Origin: a virus
Virus record (IMG/VR): IMGVR_UViG_3300029521_000019
Span: 1 to 30,104 of that record
DNA: 30,104 bases
Strand: one strand, 5' to 3'
Made by a program: the position numbers and the translations under genes
In this document: positions 3,483 to 14,139 of the stretch, piece after piece
Layout: the number at the start of each line of letters is the position of its first letter
Numbering within the stretch: the stretch's first letter is position 1
Notes under the pieces: generated by a model
What the model was told of the DNA's origin: nothing
Database searches by the model: none
The model's input: only the letters and a program-made list of their open reading frames with translations

Positions 3483-3854
3483 ATGTCAAAAGAAGACCTC
3501 ATACCGTTTAATAAAATGTCTCCAGAAGAGCATCGACGCTTGTCGTCCATTGGTGGCAAAAAGTCAGCCGAAAGCAAGCGTAAGAAAAAAAATGCGCAGG
3601 CGTTGTTGTCGTTAATGCTCGAAGCTGATGTTCCCGCAAAAGAAAAAAAGATGCTTGAAAGCAAGTACGGTATCGCTGTTGAAGGTAGTTGCACCTGGTC
3701 TGCTGCTATAAACGCTGGCATTATCAAAGCAGCCGCAGACGGTAACGTAAGCGCTTACCAGGTTATCATGGAGATGATTACCAGCGCTCAAGAATCGGAA
3801 TGCGAGGATGACGGCCTGTCGAAATCGCTCGAAGAGCTTGGCAAACAGCTTTGA
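3483..3854 (+). CDS. terS: Terminase small subunit (putative)
   Basis: It lies immediately upstream of TerL and overlaps it. The N-terminus is basic (GGKKSAESKRKKK) and IIKAAADGNVSAYQVIMEMI resembles a TerS pattern. No SD is present. ATG 3483 lies 6 nt after TATAAT (3471..3476). Confidence 0.55.
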   Translation: MSKEDLIPFNKMSPEEHRRLSSIGGKKSAESKRKKKNAQALLSLMLEADVPAKEKKMLESKYGIAVEGSCTWSAAINAGIIKAAADGNVSAYQVIMEMITSAQESECEDDGLSKSLEELGKQL

Positions 3855-5092
3855 TCTCCGACAAGCAAAAGATGATACTGGCGTTCCCGTATTCCGATTA
3901 CGATGCCATTATAATGGACGGTGCTATCCGTAGCGGCAAGACCTCTATCGGGTTTCTTTCGTTTGTCGATGACATCATGCGACGCTATAACGGCCAGATG
4001 ATTATCGTCGCTGGCAAGACGGTAAAGAGCGCCGTAAGAAACATTATCGTGCCGTACAAAGCCATGTCGTACGCTAGAAAACGCTATACGATCAATTTCC
4101 GCGTTAGCGACAACATCATGATGGTAACGCGCGGTTCGGTCACTAATTACTTCCACGTTTTCGGCGGCAAGGACGAGCGCAGCTACGAACTTATCCAGGG
4201 TTGCACGGCGGCTGGTGCGTTTCTCGACGAGGTTGCTCTCATGCCTCGATCGTTCGTAGAGCAAGCTCTAGCCCGTTGCTCGGTAGAAGGCTCTAAGCTG
4301 TGGTTTAACTGCAACCCTGACAGCCCGAAGCATTGGTTCTACGAAGAATGGATACTCAGCGCTGCACAGAAGAACGCGTTGCACCTGCACTTCGAGTTAA
4401 GCGACAATCCAAGCTTGTCAGACGCTATTAGGTCGCGCTACGAAGCCATGTACTCCGGCGTATTCTACGACCGATATATCCGTGGATTGTGGGTCGTTGC
4501 CGAAGGACTTGTGTACCAGATGCCGGACGATGCCATAACATGCACGCCAGAGGATGCATTAGGGGACGGGCGCGGTGCGTGGTATATCAGCATGGACTAC
4601 GGTATAACCAACCCGTTTGCTGCGATCCTGTGGCGCGTAACCGCATCGAGGGCTTACGCCGTCAAAGAGTACGTGTTTGACAGCCGCAAGGAAAACAGGC
4701 GGCTTACCGACGAAGAGCATTACGCGAACGTCGAAAAGCTGGCGCAGTACGTCGATGAGCATGGAAACACTCGAACGCGCAATATAGAGTGCATCGTGAT
4801 CGACCCCAGCGCTAACAGCTTCAAGGAGACGATACGCAGGCACGGCAAATTCGATTATCGAAACGCCAAAAACGACGTTATAGCAGGTATTTCAACCACG
4901 ACGACGATGCTCGAAAACGAGCATGTTAAAATATCAACAGACTGCAAAAGCTTGCTTGTCGAAAAAGGGCTGTATCGTTGGGACGATAAAAGCGACAAAG
5001 ACGCTGTGCTAAAAGATAATGACCACTGTTTAGACGCTGCACGTTACATGTGCCACACGATTTTACGTCACGAGTTGGAAGGGTACGTATGA
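3851..5092 (+). CDS. terL: Terminase large subunit
   Basis: Walker A is DGAIRSGKT and Walker B is AFLDEV. The nuclease domain shows IVIDPSA and DHCLDAARY. The start is TTG 3851, overlapping the terS stop, or ATG 3872. Confidence 0.9.
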   Translation: MISDKQKMILAFPYSDYDAIIMDGAIRSGKTSIGFLSFVDDIMRRYNGQMIIVAGKTVKSAVRNIIVPYKAMSYARKRYTINFRVSDNIMMVTRGSVTNYFHVFGGKDERSYELIQGCTAAGAFLDEVALMPRSFVEQALARCSVEGSKLWFNCNPDSPKHWFYEEWILSAAQKNALHLHFELSDNPSLSDAIRSRYEAMYSGVFYDRYIRGLWVVAEGLVYQMPDDAITCTPEDALGDGRGAWYISMDYGITNPFAAILWRVTASRAYAVKEYVFDSRKENRRLTDEEHYANVEKLAQYVDEHGNTRTRNIECIVIDPSANSFKETIRRHGKFDYRNAKNDVIAGISTTTTMLENEHVKISTDCKSLLVEKGLYRWDDKSDKDAVLKDNDHCLDAARYMCHTILRHELEGYV

Positions 5093-6471
5093 AAATAGTC
5101 GAAAGCCTGCTTGACAAGCTAGCGGAAAAGCTGAACAAGCACGTACAGGGTCGCCGAAGAAACCAAGCTTACCGTGACGCTGACGAAAAAGGCAGCAGCT
5201 TTTCGGTCGAAAGCATGATAAGCGAGAGCCTGACCGACCTTATCACGATGAACTTCACGCTGCCCGTTGATGGCGACAACGAGCGCGCGCAGTGGATTGA
5301 CGACGTGGCGGATAACTACGTCAACACAACGCTTAAAAAGTCTATGGCGCTTGGGTTCTTGTCCGGCGATAGCGTGACAGTGCCATCGTATAATGGCCGA
5401 AGCATCGATAACGTGGTGGTAGACGCGTCAGGTTTTGAGATATTGAGCGCGCAAGGCGATGCGATCACCAGCCTTGTTTACGTCATTGACGAGCGCAAAG
5501 GCAAGTCTGGTGCTAGATGGCAGCTCTTGCAGCTTATTGAGCTTGTGCCTGACAATAACGGCACATATAGCAACGTATACAGGCTTTACGTCGCAAAGAA
5601 CAACACGTTAATGGATGGCGTAAGCCCGGCTGGCTCCGTTGCGTCTCCGTGGTTCGGCGAGTACGACGGCGACGAGTGGAGCATCCCAGGTGTTAACCGA
5701 TTGCTTATTGGTCGATACAAGAGCCATACTATCGACCCATACGCGCCGAACACTAAAAAAGGCGTACCTATATGCTTTGGTTCGTCTCATGCTATTCGCG
5801 AAATACACTATTTGCTAGACCAGATGCACGCCGAGTTCGAGTTGTCGGAAAAGGCTATTATCGCCAGCAAGACGGCGTTTAGGAAGCACTTCAACGACGA
5901 CGGGACAAGTACCGCCATGATGCCACGCGGCGCAGATCGCTTGTTCATGTCGATCCAAGGAGGCGACGTTGACAATCCGACCATACACGACTGGTCTCCT
6001 GATATCCGATTCGAGCCTTACCGTGCAGCGTTGGAGAAGCAGTTGCAGCTTGTCGAAAAGACGGTAGGCGTTTCCAGCGGCATAATCAGCGATCCGAACA
6101 ACGTTAGCTATGAAAATGTTGACAACGTGCGCAAATCGCAGCAAAAAACGATGGCGTTTGTTAACGCAAGCCGTAAAGTTGCGCAGACGATGATGGATGA
6201 TCTGCTTTACGCATGGGACGTTATTGCAAATTATTACGGCATCACAGTTCAGGGAACGTGGCAGCAACAATACAATTGGTCTGATGAGTACGTTGAGACT
6301 TTCAGCGACAAACAGAACGCCATACTCGCTGGTGAGGCTATCGGGGCGTTTGATGCAGCAGATTATCGAGCGTTTATCACTAACGAGCCGCCCGACGTGG
6401 CTAAAGAGCGAGTAAGCGAGATTCAGGCTAATAAAGCCACAACAATTCCAACGTTTGAGTTAGGTGCATGA
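5089..6471 (+). CDS. Portal protein
   Basis: The 460-aa ORF has an ATGA overlap with terL and lies between TerL and the head-morphogenesis protein. Size and position fit A118/Sfi11-like portals. Confidence 0.75.
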   Translation: MKIVESLLDKLAEKLNKHVQGRRRNQAYRDADEKGSSFSVESMISESLTDLITMNFTLPVDGDNERAQWIDDVADNYVNTTLKKSMALGFLSGDSVTVPSYNGRSIDNVVVDASGFEILSAQGDAITSLVYVIDERKGKSGARWQLLQLIELVPDNNGTYSNVYRLYVAKNNTLMDGVSPAGSVASPWFGEYDGDEWSIPGVNRLLIGRYKSHTIDPYAPNTKKGVPICFGSSHAIREIHYLLDQMHAEFELSEKAIIASKTAFRKHFNDDGTSTAMMPRGADRLFMSIQGGDVDNPTIHDWSPDIRFEPYRAALEKQLQLVEKTVGVSSGIISDPNNVSYENVDNVRKSQQKTMAFVNASRKVAQTMMDDLLYAWDVIANYYGITVQGTWQQQYNWSDEYVETFSDKQNAILAGEAIGAFDAADYRAFITNEPPDVAKERVSEIQANKATTIPTFELGA

Positions 6472-7256
6472 TGACAGTATACAGACCTCGACAAGAAACG
6501 CTCAACGATTACGATGGGTTTGTCGAAAAATTCAATCCAAAAAAAACGACAGACGATTGCTATACGCCTGTACTAGTTTATGACGCTGTCAAAAACTGGG
6601 CGGTAGATGAATATTCGTTGGAAGGTCGAAATATCGTGCGCCCGTTTGTTCCCGGAGGAGATTACGAAGCGTATGATTACCCTGAAAACTGCGTTGTTAT
6701 AGACAATCCGCCTTTTTCCATAATCTCGAAAATATGCAAAGATTACACCGAATGGGGAGTAGATTTTTTTCTTTTTGCTCCGCATCTAACTAATTTTAGC
6801 ATTAAATCAGGAAATCATATTATATGTGGACAGACTATAGAATACGCAAACGGTGCTGTTGTTAATACATCGTTTATCACTAACATGGGCAGCGATTTTA
6901 TACGGACATCACCAAAACTATCACAAGCAATAAAAGCGGCTAACGTTAAAACGAAAGCAAAAAATAAAAAGCAGCTGCCTAAATATAAATATCCTTCCAA
7001 CGTTTTAACCGTTTCGGACTTAGAAAAAATATGCAATGCTGGAATCGAGTATTCAGTTTCAAAAAATGAATGTACTCAAATTAGCAGGCTTGATGCTCAA
7101 AAAGAAGTGAAAAAGAAAATATTCGGAAACGGCTATATGCTTAGCGACAAAGCAGCAGAACTGAAAGCAGCAGAACTGAAAGCAGCAGAAGTTGAAAAAA
7201 TAGAGTGGCTATTGAGTGATCGAGAACTATCAATTATAGAAAAACTCGGTGCATGA
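6468..7256 (+). CDS. DNA methyltransferase (amino-MTase, probably N6-adenine); no partner endonuclease found
   Basis: VIDNPPFS is a motif IV (D/N)PP(F/Y), and DDCYTP lies upstream. The gene is AT-rich (23 of 60 G+C in line 6901..6960). The C-terminal AAELK repeats come from a 15-bp x3 tandem repeat at 7152..7196. Confidence 0.6.
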   Translation: MMTVYRPRQETLNDYDGFVEKFNPKKTTDDCYTPVLVYDAVKNWAVDEYSLEGRNIVRPFVPGGDYEAYDYPENCVVIDNPPFSIISKICKDYTEWGVDFFLFAPHLTNFSIKSGNHIICGQTIEYANGAVVNTSFITNMGSDFIRTSPKLSQAIKAANVKTKAKNKKQLPKYKYPSNVLTVSDLEKICNAGIEYSVSKNECTQISRLDAQKEVKKKIFGNGYMLSDKAAELKAAELKAAEVEKIEWLLSDRELSIIEKLGA

Positions 7257-7408
7257 TGAACCAATATTGCTTATCATGCGGGAAAATAAACGATAATCCA
7301 CGCTTTAGATTTTGCTCGAAGTGCGAAAAAGACGAGCGCGCCCGTCACAGGCTAAAGGAGATTGGTGTAAAAGATGCAGCAAGACCCAGCAAGCGAGCAA
7401 GCGCTTAA
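7256..7408 (+). CDS. Possible 50-aa zinc-ribbon micro-protein. Absent from the ORF track.
   Basis: MNQYCLSCGKINDNPRFRFCSKCEKDERARHRLKEIG... has CxxC-N11-CxxC. Its ATG overlaps the MTase stop, and its 3' end overlaps the next gene by 35 nt in another frame. Confidence 0.3.
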   Translation: MNQYCLSCGKINDNPRFRFCSKCEKDERARHRLKEIGVKDAARPSKRASA

Positions 7409-8522
7409 CGGCGCTGCCGATAGCGTAGAGAGCGCCGCAACAGCCATCGAGCTTGCGGCGCTCGGCGTTGTTGCGGCGGCATTAGGCTCTATTACAGCAT
7501 CAACGACGTATGCAAAGATGCGAGCGCAAGAAGCACGAGACTTAAAGGCCATCGAGCAAGCGTTAAAGCGCGGTAACAAGCTGCTTAAAGCACAGAGCGG
7601 CAAGCTACTGGACAAAATGGCAGACGCTACAGACGATTGGGCTGCAAAATACTACACCGCTGCGAGCAAGAAGCAGATCAAGGCGGCACAGAACGCGAAC
7701 ATAAGGCCAACGCTTGACGCTGGTAAGAAAGCCAACGACAAAGTAATTGACAGCTTATGCCGCACGTCGGTAATGCAGATCGTTTCGCCAGATGGTAAGT
7801 TATTGCCGATTGCAAAGGCGTACCGCGCTCATGTCGACAACGCGATACTGGCAATGTCGCAAGGCGAGCAGACTTATCAGACGGCGATAGCTAAGGCTGT
7901 CAACGACCTAGCTTCGTACGGCCTGCGAGTGCGCTACGAGAGCGGCGTTACACGCGAACTATACGCGGCTGTGCGCACTAACGTCATGGACGGTTACCGG
8001 GTCACAATGGACGGCATACGAGCCGCGCAGGGTCGCGAGTTCGGCGCGGACGGCGTTGAAGTCACGGCTCATGGGCTATGCGCTCCAGACCACCAACCGT
8101 ACCAGGGCAAACAATACAGCAAGCGAGATTTCGATAGGCTTAACGCATCGCTAGACAGGCCGCTTGTTACAGGCGCGAATTGCCACCACACGACTTTTCC
8201 GGTTATTCTAGGCGTGAGCAGCGACAAATACACCGACGACCAGCTGCAAGATATTATCGACCGCAGCAATGCAGAGGTTACTTTTAACGGTTTAAGCGGC
8301 AAACAGATGACCATGAGCCGCTACGAAGCGACCCAATACCAACGCAAGGTAGAGGGAGCCATACGTCAGAACAACATGGCGGCGAGCCTCGCTGATAGTG
8401 CGTCAGCATCGACCGACGCAAAGCGCAAAGCACGCGAGCTAACGGCATATTATAAGGCCATGAGCAAAGATTCCGGCCTGACGACAAGAATCGAACGAAC
8501 GCAAGCATATACGCTTAAATAG
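7374..8522 (+). CDS. Head morphogenesis / minor capsid protein (SPP1 gp7 / Mu F-like)
   Basis: GADGVEVTAHGLCAPDHQPYQGKQYS is the characteristic MuF/gp7 motif. The gene sits after the portal in the head module. Confidence 0.8.
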   Translation: MQQDPASEQALNGAADSVESAATAIELAALGVVAAALGSITASTTYAKMRAQEARDLKAIEQALKRGNKLLKAQSGKLLDKMADATDDWAAKYYTAASKKQIKAAQNANIRPTLDAGKKANDKVIDSLCRTSVMQIVSPDGKLLPIAKAYRAHVDNAILAMSQGEQTYQTAIAKAVNDLASYGLRVRYESGVTRELYAAVRTNVMDGYRVTMDGIRAAQGREFGADGVEVTAHGLCAPDHQPYQGKQYSKRDFDRLNASLDRPLVTGANCHHTTFPVILGVSSDKYTDDQLQDIIDRSNAEVTFNGLSGKQMTMSRYEATQYQRKVEGAIRQNNMAASLADSASASTDAKRKARELTAYYKAMSKDSGLTTRIERTQAYTLK

Positions 8523-8644
8523 TTCAGTTTTCAAGGTACAAAAGGTCATCAAACATTAAAACACACCCTTAGAACGGCTTACAGCAAGCCGATGACCTGC
8601 GGTTATACAAAACAAAAAATTAAGGCAAAACTTGCGAAAATATG

Positions 8645-8680
8645 TTGACGTGTATCTAATACGTGTATATAATGATATAC
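8645..8680 (+). promoter_or_regulatory. Promoter (TTGACG-17-TATAAT) with an overlapping palindromic operator GTATATAATGATATAC
   Basis: The -35 is at 8645..8650 and the -10 at 8668..8673. The operator (8665..8680) matches the operator core at 27766..27781 and 29684..29699 at 15 of 16 positions. Confidence 0.6.
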
Positions 8681-8724
8681 GTCGAAGCAAGCAAGGAACT
8701 AAACTATGGATTGGAGTGGTAATC

Positions 8725-8814
8725 ATGCCGGAAGAATGGAGCATGGCGCGTAAAGTTGCTACATGGTTATTTATTATAGCCTTGCCGTTTCTCGGAAGCT
8801 TGGACTCGTTTTAG
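8725..8814 (+). CDS. Possible 29-aa membrane micro-peptide
   Basis: MPEEWSMARKVATWLFIIALPFLGSLDSF follows GGAG by 8 nt and has one hydrophobic segment. The longer track ORF from 8632 starts upstream of, and runs through, the promoter. Confidence 0.25.
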   Translation: MPEEWSMARKVATWLFIIALPFLGSLDSF

Positions 8815-8832
8815 AATACGAAAGGAACCATC

Positions 8833-9138
8833 ATGCAGTACACGACTGAAGAACTTCAAACTACTCTTGATCTCCACAAAAAATGGCTATACAACAAGGA
8901 AGAAGGAAAACGCGCTGACATGCGCTTCGCTGACCTGCGCTTCGCTGACCTGCGCTTCGCTGACCTGCGCTTCGCTGACCTGCGCGACGCTGACCTGCGC
9001 GGCGCTGACCTGCGCTTCGCTAACCTGCGCGGCGCTGACATTAGCGACGCTGACCTGCGCGACGCTAACATGAGTGGCGCTAAAAACATCCCTGAAATAG
9101 CATGTTTTATTACGCGGGCAGAAGCAGAGAATTACTAG
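8833..9138 (+). CDS. Pentapeptide-repeat protein
   Basis: There are 11 consecutive A(D/N)LxX pentapeptides (ADMRF ADLRF x3 ADLRD ADLRG ...). The RBS is CGAAAGGAAC. Confidence 0.85.
   Translation: MQYTTEELQTTLDLHKKWLYNKEEGKRADMRFADLRFADLRFADLRFADLRDADLRGADLRFANLRGADISDADLRDANMSGAKNIPEIACFITRAEAENY
8914..9078 (+). repeat. 15-bp tandem repeat (11 units) encoding the pentapeptide repeats
   Basis: GCTGACCTGCGCTTC is repeated exactly three times (8929..8973) and is flanked by diverged copies. Confidence 0.9.
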
Positions 9139-9151
9139 GAGGTGATTCGAT

Positions 9152-9367
9152 ATGACACCACACGAGAAAAACCCGATTTTGTACGCGCCAGAAGAGGGGG
9201 TTGATTATGTAACATGCTGGAATTGCAGGCATGGTTGGCCTCTTTGCAGCGCAAACCACGACAGCCTTGCAACAGACGCTGCATGGTGCGGCAAATACTA
9301 TGAATTGATCGATTATCCGCACGAGCACCTTGCAAACGACGACGCGGAATGTTGGGAATCACTATGA
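9152..9367 (+). CDS. Hypothetical small Cys-containing protein
   Basis: A strong RBS (TAGGAGGTGA) lies 6 nt upstream. The 71-aa product was not recognised. Confidence 0.55.
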   Translation: MTPHEKNPILYAPEEGVDYVTCWNCRHGWPLCSANHDSLATDAAWCGKYYELIDYPHEHLANDDAECWESL

Positions 9368-9408
9368 CGTGCATCTTTTTGTTGTGCGCTTAAACCGAAA
9401 GGAACATT

Positions 9409-10098
9409 ATGAGTGATGGTATCGAAAAGCTGAAAGAATGCGCTTACGACATGGATCAGATGCAATGCGATGACGTTTTAGTGTTAGCAGATCAAATCGA
9501 GCGTGAGCATGCATCAGAGTTGCAGGCGATCGAAGCCGAGATGGACAAGCGCCTGATGCCTCCGGGGATGGAGTGGCCGAAAGACCGCAACGAAAACCCG
9601 TTCGACCCTCGCAAGCTGTACGACAGCGGATGCGGAGCCGTTGACTTTGTTCGAATCGGGTTCGTCAACGGCGAGCAATGGGCAAGCGTCGTGTCGCACG
9701 ATGGGAACGATCTTTTGCCCGAAGAGCTTGGCGATTGCGAACCAGAGGTGCTAGGAGCGGATGGCCTGCCGATCAAGGTTGGCGAGACGGTGTGGTACGT
9801 GGGCGAACCCCTAGTGCGCGGAACCGTCGAAGCCGTCGGCGAGGGCGAGGTGATGCTGGCTGGCGACGGCGTGTATGCGCCCTTAGACCTCACCCACACC
9901 CAACCCGACCTTAAACTGCGTAAGTGCCCATTTTGCGGCGGAGAGGCCGACATGGTCGACGAAGGATCCGAGTGCTCGCCTGATCGGTTCTGGGCGTACT
10001 GCACGAATCCCAGCTGCTTCGTCGAAGGGACGGGCGTTTACGCGACGGAAGAGGAAGCCGCGCAAGCATGGAATACCCGCGTAGAATACAATATCTAG
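9409..10098 (+). CDS. Protein with a C-terminal Lar-like (restriction alleviation family) zinc ribbon
   Basis: The C-terminus reads LRKCPFCGGEADMV...YCTNPSCFVEG...ATEEEAAQAWNTR, matching the Lar-family pattern CPFCGG...C..C...eeA..aWN.R. The N-terminal ~165 aa were not recognised. The RBS is CCGAAAGGAAC. Confidence 0.6.
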   Translation: MSDGIEKLKECAYDMDQMQCDDVLVLADQIEREHASELQAIEAEMDKRLMPPGMEWPKDRNENPFDPRKLYDSGCGAVDFVRIGFVNGEQWASVVSHDGNDLLPEELGDCEPEVLGADGLPIKVGETVWYVGEPLVRGTVEAVGEGEVMLAGDGVYAPLDLTHTQPDLKLRKCPFCGGEADMVDEGSECSPDRFWAYCTNPSCFVEGTGVYATEEEAAQAWNTRVEYNI

Positions 10099-10112
10099 GG
10101 AAAGGCAAGACA

Positions 10113-10841
10113 ATGGGCTTCATGGATAAAATTAAACTCGCGTCTTCAGACTTAGCGCAGCAGGCACAAACAAAAGTAGAGAATAATATCGCTGTAAAAA
10201 TGCAAAAACATGAAGAAAAGCAGATCACAAAGAAAGAAATACGCAATTTGCAAAATCTGTTTTCCGCAACTAACAATATGGGAGATATCTCCATAGATAG
10301 CAAGAATTGCCTGTTCAAGGTTAAACATGCCTCATCGAGCATCAAGAAAAAAAGCGGAATAATGGCAAAGACCGGCAAGGTTGTTGCAGCATCCATGACC
10401 GCCGGTGCATCAATAGCAATAGAACAAGCAATGAAGCCAAATGATAAAGTATTTTCGTTTAGCGAGCTTTTAAGCTTCGAGCTTCTCGAAGACGATGCGC
10501 AGGTTGTTGGTTGTGGAGTCGGCATGGCTCTCGTAGGGGGAGCGTTCTTTGGCGTAGGTGGAGCGATAGCAGGTGCAATGACCGGTGGAAAGAAAACGAA
10601 AAAGACCGTCGAAAACCTAGCTTTGAAAATCAATTTGAACGATATCGACTTCCCTTGCGTCATTATCACCTATATCAACAAATCAACGAAAATATCTAGC
10701 AATGAATATCGGAAAGCAATCAGTGTTGCACATGAAACAATATCGTGTCTTAAATTGATTATAGACAGTGTGTCCGCCAACTCAAACGAAGCACGAGCCG
10801 AAAAAACCCACAAGAGCGCACAGGTAGGTACTAGGTATTGA
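10113..10841 (+). CDS. Hypothetical protein with a central glycine-zipper membrane segment
   Basis: ATG 10113 lies within the longer track ORF. It contains GCGVGMALVGGAFFGVGGAIAGAMTGG (GxxxG repeats) flanked by beta-rich segments (DISIDSKNCLFKV, VFSFSELLSFELLEDD). The DNA is clearly AT-rich relative to its neighbours. Confidence 0.55.
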   Translation: MGFMDKIKLASSDLAQQAQTKVENNIAVKMQKHEEKQITKKEIRNLQNLFSATNNMGDISIDSKNCLFKVKHASSSIKKKSGIMAKTGKVVAASMTAGASIAIEQAMKPNDKVFSFSELLSFELLEDDAQVVGCGVGMALVGGAFFGVGGAIAGAMTGGKKTKKTVENLALKINLNDIDFPCVIITYINKSTKISSNEYRKAISVAHETISCLKLIIDSVSANSNEARAEKTHKSAQVGTRY

Positions 10842-10938
10842 CTTTTAGTCTAACCCTAGCTATATCGAAGAAGCAGGAACTTAACAGCAAAACGAACAAT
10901 AAGTAGTTTTGCGTAAGATTAAGGAAGTAGGCTAACTA

Positions 10939-11124
10939 ATGCCTGAGTACATAATCAACACGGCGAGTATGGATATCGACCGAAAGAACGAGATTGTGAG
11001 GTGTCGAGACTGCAAGCTGTGGGCGACAGAGTTGAGATACATTGGTAAATGCACCGGCAAAGACGGAAAAGTAAATCCTAACGGATACTGCGCCTGGGGA
11101 GAGAAACGTGATGTCGATGACTAG
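10939..11124 (+). CDS. Hypothetical small Cys-rich protein
   Basis: The 61-aa product has CxxC...C...C (RCRDCKLW...GKC...YCAWGE). A weak RBS (AAGGAAG) lies upstream. Confidence 0.45.
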   Translation: MPEYIINTASMDIDRKNEIVRCRDCKLWATELRYIGKCTGKDGKVNPNGYCAWGEKRDVDD

Positions 11125-11548
11125 AAGCGTATGCCCAGGCTGCGCCCACGAGCAGGCATGCGGACACGCCGAAGTCCATTCATGTTCAAACAGAGATCCG
11201 ATCGAGAAGGGAACGGGAATGAATCGAGCGCAACGCCGAAAGGCGGGCATAAAGAAGCCGGAGCCTACGTACAATCTCAACGCCCAGCAGCTGGCGGGCA
11301 TGAAGAAGGAAGCGACGAACGAGGCCGTCCACGCGGCGTTCATCCTGATGCTGGCCATACCCGCGATGGTGTTGCACGACAAGTTCGGTCAGCTGATGCC
11401 CAAGGAGGTCGGAGGCAAGAACAGGGAGGAGCGGTTCGTCGACATGTGCGTAGACCTGTACGACAGCTACGTAAAGGGATACGTCACGCTCGACGACCTG
11501 CGCGAGTGGCTGTGGGAGGAGGCCAACACCAAGATCGAGATGACGTGA
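11111..11548 (+). CDS. Hypothetical protein
   Basis: ATG 11111 lies 6 nt after GGGGAGAG. The 145-aa product has an N-terminal Cys/His cluster followed by MNRAQRRKAG. Function is unknown. It is the last gene before the terminator. Confidence 0.5.
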   Translation: MSMTRSVCPGCAHEQACGHAEVHSCSNRDPIEKGTGMNRAQRRKAGIKKPEPTYNLNAQQLAGMKKEATNEAVHAAFILMLAIPAMVLHDKFGQLMPKEVGGKNREERFVDMCVDLYDSYVKGYVTLDDLREWLWEEANTKIEMT

Positions 11549-11592
11549 AGGTCAGCCGGATAGCGGGTAGCATAGCCATAACGTAACGAATG

Positions 11593-11617
11593 GAGCCTTG
11601 GAAACAGGGCTCTTTTT
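11593..11617 (+). terminator. Rho-independent terminator closing the accessory island
   Basis: GAGCCTT / AGGGCTC form a 7-bp stem including one G-U pair, with loop GGAAAC, followed by TTTTT (11613..11617). Confidence 0.7.
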
Positions 11618-11901
11618 CGCTATAATAGTGGCATGCTCACAACATGGCTATATAGCCCGAGGCGTATGCGAACCTGTGACACTCGCGCATACTGGCACCG
11701 AAGGCGTTGAAGATGTTGCCATATTTTTTTTTGGGGTCGAACCCCTATAGGTCTGCATATCAAAAGTCGCAAGCAACATAATCTACCTAGTTGACCGACA
11801 AAGGTTGACGACGAGTGCAGTATCCGCTCCTGATAAACAATACTTATCCTAATGACTAAAATCCATATGAGTTATACCGCATTTATGCGGTGTAACGACG
11901 T

Positions 11902-11940
11902 GGAGGGGAGCGGGAGGGGAGGCCGGAACGTCCTCCCCTC
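11902..11940 (+). other. G-rich direct repeat (GGAGGGGAG / GGAGGGGAG-G) plus a perfect 9-bp hairpin GAGGGGAGG...CCTCCCCTC
   Basis: The arms are 11914..11922 and 11932..11940. A second G-rich copy at 11902..11910 could pair with the same C-rich arm. No T-tract follows. Confidence 0.6.
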
Positions 11941-12038
11941 GCACCGTACAGCAAGGTAGCAGCGTTAGCGTCAACCGGACGGCTTAATAGCTACGGCCAT
12001 AACTCTATGATCGCCCCATGATCGCGTAAAACGCTATG

Positions 12039-12079
12039 CGGTACGATTTTCGTACCGGTGGTACGATTTTCGTACCGGT
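12039..12079. repeat. Two tandem 20-bp units GGTACGATTTTCGTACCGGT, each an inverted repeat
   Basis: 12040..12059 equals 12060..12079. The arms are CGGTACGA / TCGTACCG with a TTT spacer. The units lie about 50 to 90 bp upstream of the late-operon -10. Confidence 0.9.
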
Positions 12080-12127
12080 ATGCCGAATCTAAGCTTCGTA
12101 TACTGTTGATCATGCGTTTACCATATA

Positions 12128-12136
12128 TGCTATAAT
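12128..12136 (+). promoter_or_regulatory. Candidate late-operon promoter, extended -10 TGCTATAAT
   Basis: A perfect TGnTATAAT lies about 90 nt upstream of the scaffold gene start. No clear -35 is present. Confidence 0.5.
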
Positions 12137-12223
12137 TCAGGTAGCATTGCGGCCGCTTGAGCGCCGCCCGTCCATTAGCGCTAGCCACGCTTAAAAGCAG
12201 GCTTTACGGATAGGAGCATCACC

Positions 12224-12796
12224 GTGGAAAACATTCGGGAGATCGTAGCACGCCTAGGGATCGAGTGCGATGCGGCACAACTGGAGAAAGAGGTGCTGGC
12301 TAACTATCGTACTATCGCCGAGGTAGACGGTACGAAGGCCAAGATCGATGCGCTGAACGCCGACATCGAAGCACGCGACGCGCAAATCGCCGACCTGGGC
12401 AAAAAGGTTGACGAGTTGAGCGCTTCCGGTGCAGAGATCGAAGCTCTAAAGGCGCAGGTCGAACAATACCGTGCCAGCGAGCAAGAAGCGAAACAAAAAG
12501 CCGAGGCAGATGCGGCGAAGCAGCAGTTCGAGCAATCGTTCACCGATGCGCTCAAAGATCGCAAGTTCAGCAACGACTTCACCCGCCGAGCCGTCATGGA
12601 GGAAGTGCGCAAGATGCGCGAGACCGACAGCGTAAGCGGCCTCGAAGCGTTGATCGATCAGGTTACCAAGGACGTACCCGATGTGTGGTTCAACCCGAAC
12701 AAGCCCAACCCGCAGACAGTTCCCGCCCCTACTGACAATGCGGCAAAAGTCGAACTTAACAACGTTCGCGAAATCATGGGGCTACCTACAGAATAA
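12224..12796 (+). CDS. Scaffolding protein (GP20-like)
   Basis: GTG start follows AGGAG by 8 nt. The product is a highly charged Ala/Glu/Lys-rich coiled coil and lies immediately upstream of the major capsid gene. Confidence 0.8.
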   Translation: MENIREIVARLGIECDAAQLEKEVLANYRTIAEVDGTKAKIDALNADIEARDAQIADLGKKVDELSASGAEIEALKAQVEQYRASEQEAKQKAEADAAKQQFEQSFTDALKDRKFSNDFTRRAVMEEVRKMRETDSVSGLEALIDQVTKDVPDVWFNPNKPNPQTVPAPTDNAAKVELNNVREIMGLPTE

Positions 12797-12806
12797 GGAG
12801 AAATAA

Positions 12807-13682
12807 ATGGCGAACAGCATCACGAAATTCAAGGCGTACACCTCCATGCTCGACGAGGTCTACAAGCTGGCTTCCCTTACTTCCGTGCTCGACATCAACG
12901 ACGCGATGGTGCAGGCGGGAGCCAACGCTAACGAGATCGTCATCCCTAAGATCAGCATGGACGGAATGGCAGACTACAGCCGTTCGGCTGGATATGTTGG
13001 CGGAGACGTAACGCTCACCAACGAAACCGTTCAGTTCAATTACGATCGTGGACGTTCGTTCACGATCGATTCGATGGACAACGAAGAGACCGCAGGCGTT
13101 GCTTTCGGCCGCCTGTCGTCTGAGTTCATCCGCACTAAGGCGGCTCCGGAGATCGATGCATTCCGCTTTGCCACCTATTGCGGATTGACGGGAATCGGCA
13201 AGGCTACCGCCGCAACTTATGAAACTGCCGATACCGTGCTTGCAGCGATCAACGCGGGCGTTACGTCGCTCGACGAAGCAGAGGTTCCCGACACCGAGCG
13301 CTACCTGTTCATCACGCCGACGCTTTACAATCTTGCGATGAGCGCCGACACCACGAAGAGCAAGGAAATGCTCGACGGGTTCGCGCAGATCACTAAGGTT
13401 CCGCAGAGCCGCTTTTACACGTCGATTGACTTGCTTGACGGCACCACTGATGGCGAGGAAGCAGGCGGCTTCGGCAAGACCGCTACGACGGGCAAAGACA
13501 TCAACTTCATGATCATCCACAAGCCGGCATTGATCCAGTACTCGAAGCACGTCGTGAACAAGGTCGTTACTCCTGAAGAGAACCAGACCTCCGACGGCTG
13601 GAAGTTCTTCTACCGTTCGTATGGCTTGGCCGACGCATGCGAGAACAAGGTTGCCGGCATCTACTTGTCGAACAAGGCTTAG
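12807..13682 (+). CDS. Major capsid protein
   Basis: The 291-aa ORF has an AAGGAG RBS and follows the scaffold gene. MDGMADYSRSAGYVGGDVTLTNETVQFNYDRGRSFTIDSMDNEET is typical of this capsid family. Confidence 0.85.
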   Translation: MANSITKFKAYTSMLDEVYKLASLTSVLDINDAMVQAGANANEIVIPKISMDGMADYSRSAGYVGGDVTLTNETVQFNYDRGRSFTIDSMDNEETAGVAFGRLSSEFIRTKAAPEIDAFRFATYCGLTGIGKATAATYETADTVLAAINAGVTSLDEAEVPDTERYLFITPTLYNLAMSADTTKSKEMLDGFAQITKVPQSRFYTSIDLLDGTTDGEEAGGFGKTATTGKDINFMIIHKPALIQYSKHVVNKVVTPEENQTSDGWKFFYRSYGLADACENKVAGIYLSNKA

Positions 13683-13684
13683 CC

Positions 13685-13807
13685 ATGGCACGAACCGTTG
13701 GGCTGAAAGCCGAACCGAAGCCGAAGCCAGAAGCCGAACCAGAGCCGAAGCAGAAGCCGAAGCCTGCGCAGAAGCCGAAGCCGAAAGAGCAGATCAAGGC
13801 TGACTAA
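13685..13807 (+). CDS. Possible 40-aa (E/K)-P repeat micro-protein. Not in the ORF track in this frame.
   Basis: MARTVGLKAEPKPKPEAEPEPKQKPKPAQKPKPKEQIKAD is encoded by GAAGCC-like hexamer repeats. Its stop overlaps the next start (TAATG). The choice of frame is uncertain. Confidence 0.3.
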   Translation: MARTVGLKAEPKPKPEAEPEPKQKPKPAQKPKPKEQIKAD

Positions 13808-14139
13808 TGTATATCGATTTTGATACATATCAGGCCGCGGGGGGTTCGCTTGCAGAAGCGGACTTCTCGCGGTTGGAGAACAAGGCAGAGATGCTGCTTG
13901 ACGATTGGACGCTTGGCCGCATCAGGTTCATGACGGCTCCGCTGCCTGCTTACGTGGCGGCAGCTATGACCGAGATCATCGACGCGCTCCCGAAGCTAGC
14001 AGGTGAGCGCGTCACCTCGTTCAGCAACGGCGTGACCTCGTTCAGCTTCGACACGTCGAAGAGCGATGTCTCCATGCTTTACGATGACGTGGTGCGCATC
14101 CTGCCGGTAGAGCTTGTGAGCAGGTGCGTATGCGAATAG
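13807..14139 (+). CDS. Head-tail connector / adaptor protein (putative)
   Basis: The 110-aa ORF is the first gene after the capsid gene and is translationally coupled. The call rests on position. Confidence 0.5.
   Translation: MYIDFDTYQAAGGSLAEADFSRLENKAEMLLDDWTLGRIRFMTAPLPAYVAAAMTEIIDALPKLAGERVTSFSNGVTSFSFDTSKSDVSMLYDDVVRILPVELVSRCVCE

Follow-up and report, generated by a model that had tools for sequence, protein, structure and literature searches.

The 30,104-bp viral sequence IMGVR_UViG_3300029521_000019, analysed over its whole length (the window), carries an island of seven plus-strand open reading frames (ORFs) between its MuF-like minor capsid gene and its scaffold gene, enclosed by a promoter (8645-8673) and a terminator stem-loop (11592-11613). 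In order, the ORFs encode a candidate 29-aa hydrophobic peptide, a pentapeptide-repeat protein, a 71-aa acidic protein with four cysteines, a 229-aa fusion of an acidic domain (designated LarN) with a Lar-type zinc ribbon, a glycine-zipper protein, a 61-aa Cys-rich protein and a 145-aa protein with an N-terminal Cys/His motif (Table 1). As far as can be judged from sequence, the island is a real, conserved and terminator-bounded accessory (moron-like) operon, and the slot that it occupies in the head module is variable. We lean, by a small measure, towards the view that this operon derives from prophages and the host, is expressed early and carries cargo for host takeover or counter-defence. 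A role against restriction-modification (R-M), centred on the 71-aa protein and the LarN-Lar fusion, is a more tentative proposal, which we consider doubtful rather than probable. The other island members have no assignable activity. Accessory operons at variable positions within phage head modules are an ordinary phenomenon. Eggerthella lenta is a drug-metabolising gut bacterium for which very few phages have been isolated, and distinguishing dispensable cargo from genes that might overcome host restriction would help in the selection or engineering of phages for microbiome editing.

The window is a close relative of Eggerthella phage PMBT5 (L001; MH626557, 30,930 bp, genus Lentavirus), a virulent siphovirus that infects E. 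lenta (Sprotte et al. 2022, PMC9394477). A megablast search with positions 5000-14000 gave 93.6% identity over 72% of the query, and the whole-window alignment is collinear with few indels. PMBT5 ORF9-ORF14 form an orthologous set at the same position, with an identical promoter and terminator and ~90-97% nucleotide identity across most of the island. The genes themselves are thus already known, a point missed by the earlier note on this DNA: the 2022 annotation lists ORF9 as Rfr (pentapeptide; 'repeat five residue protein'), ORF11 as Lar-family ('restriction alleviation protein Lar') and ORF12 as SHOCT-domain ('SHOCT domain-containing protein'), while ORF10, ORF13 and ORF14 are hypothetical. 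These annotations are given singly, with no promoter or terminator analysis, no treatment of the genes as a unit and no tracing of their origin (PMC9394477). What is new here is the early-type class of the promoter, the variable content of the slot in distant relatives and the prophage or host origins of the genes.

The earlier note had described a ~3-kb unit with its own promoter and terminator that splits the head module, and both ends were found and are kept in close relatives. The left junction lies at ~8500-8560, where similarity to PMBT5 collapses. The island promoter matches 11 of 12 consensus positions, the best match within 6000-13000, and the palindrome GTATAT-AATG-ATATAC (8665-8680) encloses its -10 box. 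Five plus-strand intergenic sites in the window carry the motif TATAATNATATAC (2305, 8668, 26808, 27769 and 29687), compared with 0.14 expected by chance. The full palindrome is present at three sites, which are the three strongest plus-strand promoters: 8645 (11/12), 27746 (11/12) and 29664 (12/12). The unit after 26808 encodes RecT, and those after 27769 and 29687 encode a 288-aa protein and SSB, and an HTH_36 protein and a DnaC/IstB-like loader, respectively. These units end in terminators that immediately precede the following promoter. The arrangement recurs at 11592-11626, where a promoter-like site (TTGGAA-17-TATAAT, 11598-11626; 10/12) overlaps the island terminator, and this junction has an identical layout in two close relatives (L008 and L027). 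The terminator is the top-ranked match of its type in a region where such matches are not enriched overall (11 found, 9.1 expected), and it is conserved in PMBT5, L007, L008 and L027 with a single change, from G-U to G-C, in L008. The ribosome-binding site (RBS) 10-mer CGAAAGGAAC recurs at the first genes of the replication/recombination units. Within the island, the exact 10-mer precedes two genes only (at 8819 and 9396), fewer than the several that the earlier note had credited with an early-type RBS.

Because the SSB and replication units have promoters with the same -10 palindrome, we infer that the island is transcribed early, together with the replication/recombination genes and separately from the surrounding late head genes. 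Host RNA polymerase would start at the near-consensus sigma-70-type promoter, the operon would be made early and independently of the neighbouring late head genes, and the transcript would end at the island's own terminator. The motif TATAATNATATAC, which is palindromic around the -10 box, could be an operator through which a phage or host regulator controls the early units together.

The island is a mosaic, as had been suggested: the guanine-plus-cytosine (GC) content per gene, in order, is 0.41, 0.54, 0.50, 0.58, 0.42, 0.36, 0.48 and 0.59, with abrupt jumps across a range of 0.36-0.59. Eight candidate ORFs had been counted, of which seven are supportable, and a 15-aa leader ORF (8706-8753) is an optional eighth. 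The descriptions of the individual ORFs (pentapeptide repeats, C-terminal Lar domain, AT-rich glycine zipper and small Cys-rich proteins) hold. Comparison with close relatives indicates that these are real genes under selection, with nonsynonymous change (pN) far below synonymous change (pS) for several of them. The pN/pS ratio of the 71-aa gene is ~0.2-0.3, and the glycine-zipper gene has too few changes to judge. The 29-aa ORF is weakly supported; it differs from PMBT5 by three substitutions, two synonymous and one D to E, and searches against phrog, NCBIfam and PADLOC gave no family match.

Gene content in this slot differs between relatives. The island occurs in the close relatives PMBT5, L007, L008 (the last two being contigs of metagenomic relatives) and L027, with gene gain and loss among them. 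L008 has an N6_N4 methyltransferase (270 aa) between the 71-aa and Lar-like genes and is missing the 61-aa gene. L027 encodes a 350-aa LarN-type protein without the ribbon, has no glycine-zipper gene and carries two extra Cys-rich ORFs. Compared with PMBT5, the window has 60 fewer pentapeptide residues and 141 extra bases at the 3' end of the glycine-zipper gene. None of the four more distant relatives, which a tblastn search with the capsid protein brought up and whose capsid identities are 41-69%, encodes island proteins. In their place, MT835795 (L003; capsid 69% identical) has a 556-aa MuF protein with a C-terminal extension of ~200 residues, followed by one 91-aa ORF; MT835475 (L004; 57%) has a 614-aa MuF protein and one 83-aa ORF; Ruminococcus phage RG-TP1 (L005; 50%) has five unrelated ORFs; and Bajarodcaudo virus 4 (L006; 41%) has three ORFs after the portal gene. 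The synteny comparison proposed in the earlier note thus supports accessory status, since relatives that share the capsid carry other content between scaffold and the MuF or portal gene. Conflict-type cargo therefore recurs in this slot, and the island does not belong to the core head machinery.

Some of the cargo in these relatives has recognizable domains. In RG-TP1, gp24 (DUF2829; L005 8056-8283) resembles the Thoeris anti-defence Tad2-like domain, at 23.5 bits just under the cutoff of 25. Bajarodcaudo virus 4 carries a CdiA_C toxin domain (L006 3845-4429, E=2.3e-14) in the same slot. The MuF extensions of ~200 residues without Pfam match in L003 (6180-8122) and L004 (6345-8367), the two relatives nearest to the lentaviruses from outside that genus, each with its small ORF, resemble a MuF-fused polymorphic toxin and its immunity gene. 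A tblastn search of the island proteins against 50,697 phage records returned only PMBT5, plus a weak pentapeptide match in a Listeria phage, and scans of IMG/VR returned only PMBT5. PhiKL11, a newly described E. lenta phage, was considered as a relative and is unrelated (44 kb, no homology to PMBT5).

Homologues of five island modules (the 71-aa putative zinc protein, LarN, the Lar ribbon, the 61-aa putative zinc protein and the Cys/His N-terminal module of the 145-aa protein) are found in Eggerthellaceae prophages (L009-L013, L020-L023), in the same relative order where several co-occur. LarN homologues lie in prophages, on the stretch that runs from replication genes (primase, SSB, RecT) to terminase. 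A homologue of the 71-aa protein is upstream of LarN in L009/L010, L011, L012/L013 and L021, and a separate Lar zinc-ribbon gene is 0.6-1.9 kb downstream of LarN in L011, L015, L016, L017 and L020. Homologues of the 61-aa protein follow downstream of LarN (L011, L012, L021, L022 and L023), and Cys/His N-module homologues come after them in L011, L012 and L023. Last in order, in the E. lenta prophage L023, is a homologue (56.5% identical) of the 262-aa gene that lies upstream of the island in the window. Sequence identity to prophage homologues is 39-72% for the 71-aa protein and ~30-60% for LarN. As judged from this shared order, the island and the 262-aa gene are a compacted version of a conserved accessory array of Eggerthellaceae temperate phages, with LarN and the Lar ribbon fused. 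Unrelated methyltransferases are inserted between the 71-aa homologue and LarN not only in L008 but also in L009/L010 (C5, 549-585 aa) and L021 (N6_N4, 832 aa); the inserted genes overlap the LarN start in L008 and L009/L010. A strict linkage between methyltransferase and LarN was considered and rejected, since a methyltransferase is within a few kb in only ~5 of 13 loci.

The C-terminal ribbon of the 229-aa protein was called Lar-type in the earlier note, and several lines of evidence agree with that assignment. It scores 36.7 bits against Pfam PF14354 (cutoff 28.6), matches phrog_599 'Lar-like' (E=2.5e-10) and aligns with E. coli Rac Lar/RalR at 31% identity over 59 aa (BLASTP, E=6e-5). In the alignment the CPFCG motif, one further Cys, W, N and R are invariant; Rac Lar and the 229-aa protein both have a fourth Cys, and the EA..WN.R helix is shared. 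LarN (residues 1 to ~165) consists of N-terminal helices followed by two small beta domains. We detected 57 homologues, most of them without a Lar ribbon, and all named sources and genome matches are Eggerthellaceae (Eggerthella, Gordonibacter, Raoultibacter and related metagenome-assembled genomes, MAGs). The fusion and its PMBT5 orthologue are 62% identical overall, with a divergent middle. The AlphaFold2 (AF2) model has a predicted local distance difference test score (pLDDT) of 70.6 and a predicted template modelling score (pTM) of 0.37; Foldseek against BFVD found only the PMBT5 orthologue and uncharacterised proteins, and a PDB sequence search with the LarN profile gave no meaningful match. 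The 229-aa protein has a net charge of -31 (pI 4.13) and the 71-aa protein of -10; no other protein of the phage is as acidic per residue (-0.135 and -0.141, respectively), and the median net charge of the LarN family is -24. Proteins that inhibit DNA enzymes are typically this acidic. PDB sequence and Foldseek searches gave no sequence or fold similarity to Ocr or ArdA.

These properties make the 71-aa protein and the LarN-Lar fusion the likeliest active component against R-M. The methyltransferase genes that separate the 71-aa homologue from LarN in independent lineages, the early-type promoter and the conflict genes found in this slot in relatives also speak for an anti-restriction role. 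The fusion argues that LarN and the Lar ribbon work together. PMC4041452, citing King and Murray (1995), describes Lar as alleviating EcoKI restriction and enhancing modification; lambda Ral, a functional analogue of Lar, acts likewise, and its mechanism has been reviewed (PMC12707154). The pair may act on type I-like R-M or methyltransferase complexes of the host in the manner of Rac Lar and lambda Ral, so that restriction would be alleviated and modification enhanced. A more specific reading is that the 71-aa four-Cys protein, LarN and the Lar ribbon constitute an undescribed module of anti-restriction or modification control specific to Eggerthellaceae phages. It is suggested by the observation that the three are separate neighbours in prophages, where methyltransferases have been inserted between the first two on three independent occasions, and that virulent lentaviruses have them in compacted form under an early-type promoter, with LarN joined to Lar in one protein. 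We regard this reading as unlikely; were it correct, the way in which Lar-type ribbons engage R-M or methyltransferase complexes would be explained by LarN as a new partner domain.

The earlier note had likened the pentapeptide protein to DNA mimics, and the acidic 71-aa/229-aa pair is the better anti-restriction candidate. The pentapeptide fold itself is confirmed (tandem A(D/N)LXX pentapeptides; 59.8 bits against PF00805, cutoff 20.2; phrog_7713 at 2.3e-30), with generic matches to pentapeptide-repeat proteins in the PDB down to 1e-26, the best of which are consensus-designed and cyanobacterial repeat proteins. DNA mimicry is not confirmed: the protein is too short and generic for a Qnr-like assignment, with ~11-12 repeats in about three coils, a net charge of -4 and a pI of 4.96, and it fails all Qnr and MfpA models (17-25 bits, cutoffs 240-500). 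Its gene contains 10.3 copies of a near-identical 15-bp tandem repeat (8913-9066, TRF), and the repeat number varies among close relatives, the protein having 161 aa in PMBT5. It is best described as an unstable repeat gene that encodes a generic three-coil protein. The L007 and L008 contigs both begin inside this gene, consistent with assembly breaks at an unstable repeat.

A different origin applies to the glycine-zipper gene. Window positions 10094-10823 are 99.45% identical in nucleotide sequence to a gene carried by a ~7-kb integrase/Toprim/AAA_25 element in a Raoultibacter MAG (L024; GCA_036653815). Membership of the protein in PF27000 follows from the precomputed annotation of the 99%-identical P0058, the product of that gene, and of orthologues in L007 and L008. 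PF27000 and SHOCT occur together in 29 of 33 homologues. Identity to the P0058 gene ends at 10823, where SHOCT begins, and the phage protein ends in ...SAQVGTRY instead; all four phage copies are without SHOCT. The gene was evidently acquired very recently from an integrative element of the host, with loss of the SHOCT tail. As a secondary reading, the SHOCT-less copy might be a dominant-negative decoy of the host protein. The AF2 model is of low confidence (pLDDT 55) and a PDB sequence search with the protein gave no meaningful match. The L024 element (3815-12508), which carries the donor-like copy, encodes an integrase, HTH_17, a Toprim primase, AAA_25, two unknowns, the PH_gly_zipper-SHOCT protein and further integrases; it resembles a satellite or mobilisable island engaged in gene exchange with lentaviruses.

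Several observations weigh against an early counter-defence operon. PADLOC, PDB sequence searches and Foldseek returned nothing functional for any island member, PADLOC giving no hits at all, and the counter-defence cassette of the earlier note remains a hypothesis. The Lar assignment concerns a single 56-residue zinc ribbon, which scores 25.0 bits against NCBIfam TIGR03655, below the cutoff of 39.6, and Foldseek of the fusion model against the PDB gave no match at E<=1e-3, only a weak resemblance to tandem KOW/Tudor-like (SH3-like barrel) domains. To our knowledge, only one member of the Lar family has ever been tested, in E. coli, and that one is also reported as a DNase toxin, though its K52 is Thr here. 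Methyltransferases, which adjoin LarN in the minority of loci given above, are common in that prophage region anyway. The notion that the glycine-zipper family belongs to defence islands was dropped, as two chromosomal homologues sit among housekeeping genes. The early timing is read solely from promoter similarity; the weaker member of the motif set at 2305 lies upstream of a RuvC-like gene and packaging genes, and the stretch from MuF to the island has no terminator, so that late read-through is also possible.

These points leave room for other explanations of the same operon. The island could serve superinfection exclusion (Sie), phage competition or manipulation of the host membrane, with up to three products (29-aa, glycine-zipper and 145-aa) acting early at the membrane. 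The hydrophobic segments in these three products, the early-type promoter and the presence of the 99.5%-identical glycine-zipper gene as cargo of a small integrase/primase element in the Raoultibacter MAG are all compatible with such a role. However, it leaves the conserved acidic 71-aa/LarN/Lar module and the methyltransferase link unexplained, the SHOCT domain, retained by nearly all cellular homologues, is lost from the four phage glycine-zipper copies, and phrog and PADLOC searches gave no match to a Sie or abortive infection (Abi) family. We hold a membrane role to be possible but improbable.

The Lar-type domain might instead be a RalR-like non-specific DNase or toxin rather than a restriction modulator. 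RalR, which is identical to Rac Lar, cleaves DNA in vitro, is toxic when over-produced and is the toxin of the RalR/RalA type I toxin-antitoxin system; its K52Q mutant is inactive (PMC4041452). The domain studied here aligns with RalR, but the K52 position is Thr (WNTR), as it is Thr or Ala (WNTR/WNAR) in most aligned Eggerthellaceae homologues, a net charge of -31 is unlikely for a DNA-binding nuclease, and no antisense RNA partner is evident, the Rfam search of the window finding nothing. Such an activity is therefore quite improbable.

The abrupt GC changes, the truncated captured gene, the unstable pentapeptide repeat number and the variation in gene content among close relatives would also fit selectively neutral mosaic passengers, brought by illegitimate recombination into a permissive slot and without current function. 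This explanation is, if anything, slightly harder still to credit, because pN is far below pS for several genes, the promoter, RBSs and terminator are kept across relatives, the 71-aa/LarN pair is conserved across diverse prophages at the identities given above, and a 30-kb virulent genome has little space for dead weight. Finally, that these are lineage-specific head-assembly or virion proteins, functionally part of the head module, is suggested by their position between MuF and scaffold and is highly improbable, as they are missing from all the more distant capsid-sharing relatives examined, have their own promoter and terminator, have prophage homologues in the replication-to-terminase region and not in head modules, and have no PMBT5 orthologue among six virion proteins identified by mass spectrometry, an assay of low sensitivity (PMC9394477).

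Table 1. Features of the island and its surroundings, with positions in the window.
Feature	Position	Strand	Evidence and remarks
262-aa putative N6-adenine methyltransferase-like gene	6468..7256	+	DNPPF motif; between portal and MuF
MuF-like minor capsid gene	7374..8522	+	Pfam PF06152, E=8.9e-39; left flank of island
Island promoter	8645..8673	+	-35 TTGACG (8645-8650), 17-nt spacer, -10 TATAAT (8668-8673)
29-aa hydrophobic peptide (MPEEWSMARKVATWLFIIALPFLGSLDSF), candidate, in 5' leader	8725..8814	+	ORF only
Pentapeptide-repeat protein, 101 aa	8833..9138	+	PF00805, E=1.8e-16; RBS CGAAAGGAAC at 8819-8828
71-aa acidic protein	9152..9367	+	Four invariant Cys (C22, C25, C46, C67); motif NPIL...P.E..DY.TC
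229-aa fusion protein	9409..10098	+	RBS CGAAAGGAAC at 9396-9405
Lar-type zinc ribbon	residues 169-224 of 229-aa protein (9913-10080)		PF14354 Lar_restr_allev, E=4.9e-9
PH_gly_zipper protein, AT-rich, 242 aa	10113..10841	+	GC 0.42; phrog_27136, phrog_888; alternative start 10068 gives 257 aa
61-aa protein	10939..11124	+	CxxC; four Cys, three invariant across homologues (RCRDC...C...C)
145-aa protein	11111..11548	+	N-terminal Cys/His motif CPGCAHEQACGHA fused to phrog_16126 module with hydrophobic segment
Intrinsic terminator	11592..11618	+	9-pair stem-loop 11592-11613, then TTTTT; top-ranked terminator match
Conserved non-coding leader, ~0.6 kb	11598..12223	+	Between island terminator and scaffold gene
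Scaffold gene	12224..12796	+	Pfam PF06810, E=5.1e-18; right flank
Capsid gene	12807-13682		Downstream of scaffold gene

The two small proteins at the 3' end of the island vary in presence and in annotation. The 61-aa protein is absent from L027 as well as from L008. For the 145-aa protein, PMBT5 annotates only a 109-aa part, starting at window position 11219. We favour the long form as the probable product because its N-terminal CPGCAHEQACGHA motif matches the N-termini of proteins in two Eggerthellaceae prophages (L011 and L023; 76-77% identical). The long form is also called by gene callers in L007 and L008. The phrog_16126 match covers residues 38-144 of a 146-aa ORF with a GTG start at 11108.

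The 262-aa gene upstream of MuF is a second accessory insertion with the same prophage origin as the island. It had been presented as an orphan methyltransferase, an assignment that now stands on the DNPPF motif, two database names and the HHpred call of methyltransferase made by the PMBT5 authors for the orthologue (PMC9394477). The protein has more than 7800 homologues, a very large gut-phage family without a Pfam model, of which two are named DNA N-6-adenine-methyltransferase; searches of Pfam, NCBIfam and PDB sequences gave no match. The PMBT5 orthologue has been flagged as matching predicted anti-CRISPR clusters (bioRxiv 10.1101/2022.05.20.492479). The PMBT5 gene also has a 127-bp internal duplication in its coiled-coil region. 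Further upstream, PMBT5 has an extra 369-bp ORF, gp03 (L001 1638-2006), between the large terminase and portal genes, which is absent from the window (around 5092). A tRNA scan found no tRNA.

The non-coding leader between the island terminator and the scaffold gene has a mean column identity of 86% across four phages, with indel-rich patches; the corresponding gap between the last island gene and the scaffold gene in PMBT5 is 685 bp. Two hairpins are predicted at 11860-11965 (folding z=-4.1 relative to shuffled sequence), one with a compensatory change from A-U to G-C. A structured RNA over the entire 0.6 kb was rejected, because only one of five segments folds better than shuffled sequence, and Rfam searches of the whole window at the gathering threshold and of 11500-12300 at an E-value threshold found nothing credible. 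In this window only, a 20-nt sequence is perfectly duplicated in tandem (12040-12079). The stretch 11549-12223 may be a late-gene leader or a regulatory region.

Several island proteins can be compared with characterised systems. The pentapeptide protein belongs to the same sequence family as Qnr, MfpA and AlbG (pentapeptide-repeat, right-handed quadrilateral beta-helix), but it has 101 aa and ~12 repeats compared with ~180-220 aa in those proteins, a net charge of only -4 and a copy number that is unstable between close relatives. The glycine-zipper protein is 99% identical over its first ~220 residues to PH_gly_zipper and SHOCT proteins (PF27000 and PF09851) of Coriobacteriia, and shares their PH-like strand pattern and glycine zipper, whereas SHOCT is missing from the phage copies. 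With Rac Lar the 229-aa protein shares its C-terminal 56 residues at 31% identity, including CPFCG, the second Cys pair and EA..WN.R. Rac Lar is a stand-alone 64-aa protein of E. coli, within the ~60-100 aa usual for the Lar family; the ribbon here is C-terminal to a 165-residue acidic domain seen only in Eggerthellaceae phages, the host is an actinobacterium and the function suggested for the island is read from its sequence.

As a unit, the island can be compared with phage morons and with anti-defence clusters at hot spots. Classical morons are prophage genes expressed in the lysogen, whereas the island is in a virulent-type phage and would be expressed early in the lytic cycle. Unlike known anti-defence clusters, it has no member that matches a characterised anti-defence protein except the Lar ribbon. 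The traits shared with both are its own promoter and terminator, deviant GC content and presence/absence polymorphism, and the cargo found in the same slot of relatives (CdiA_C, Tad2-like and extended MuF proteins) parallels that of hot-spot clusters.

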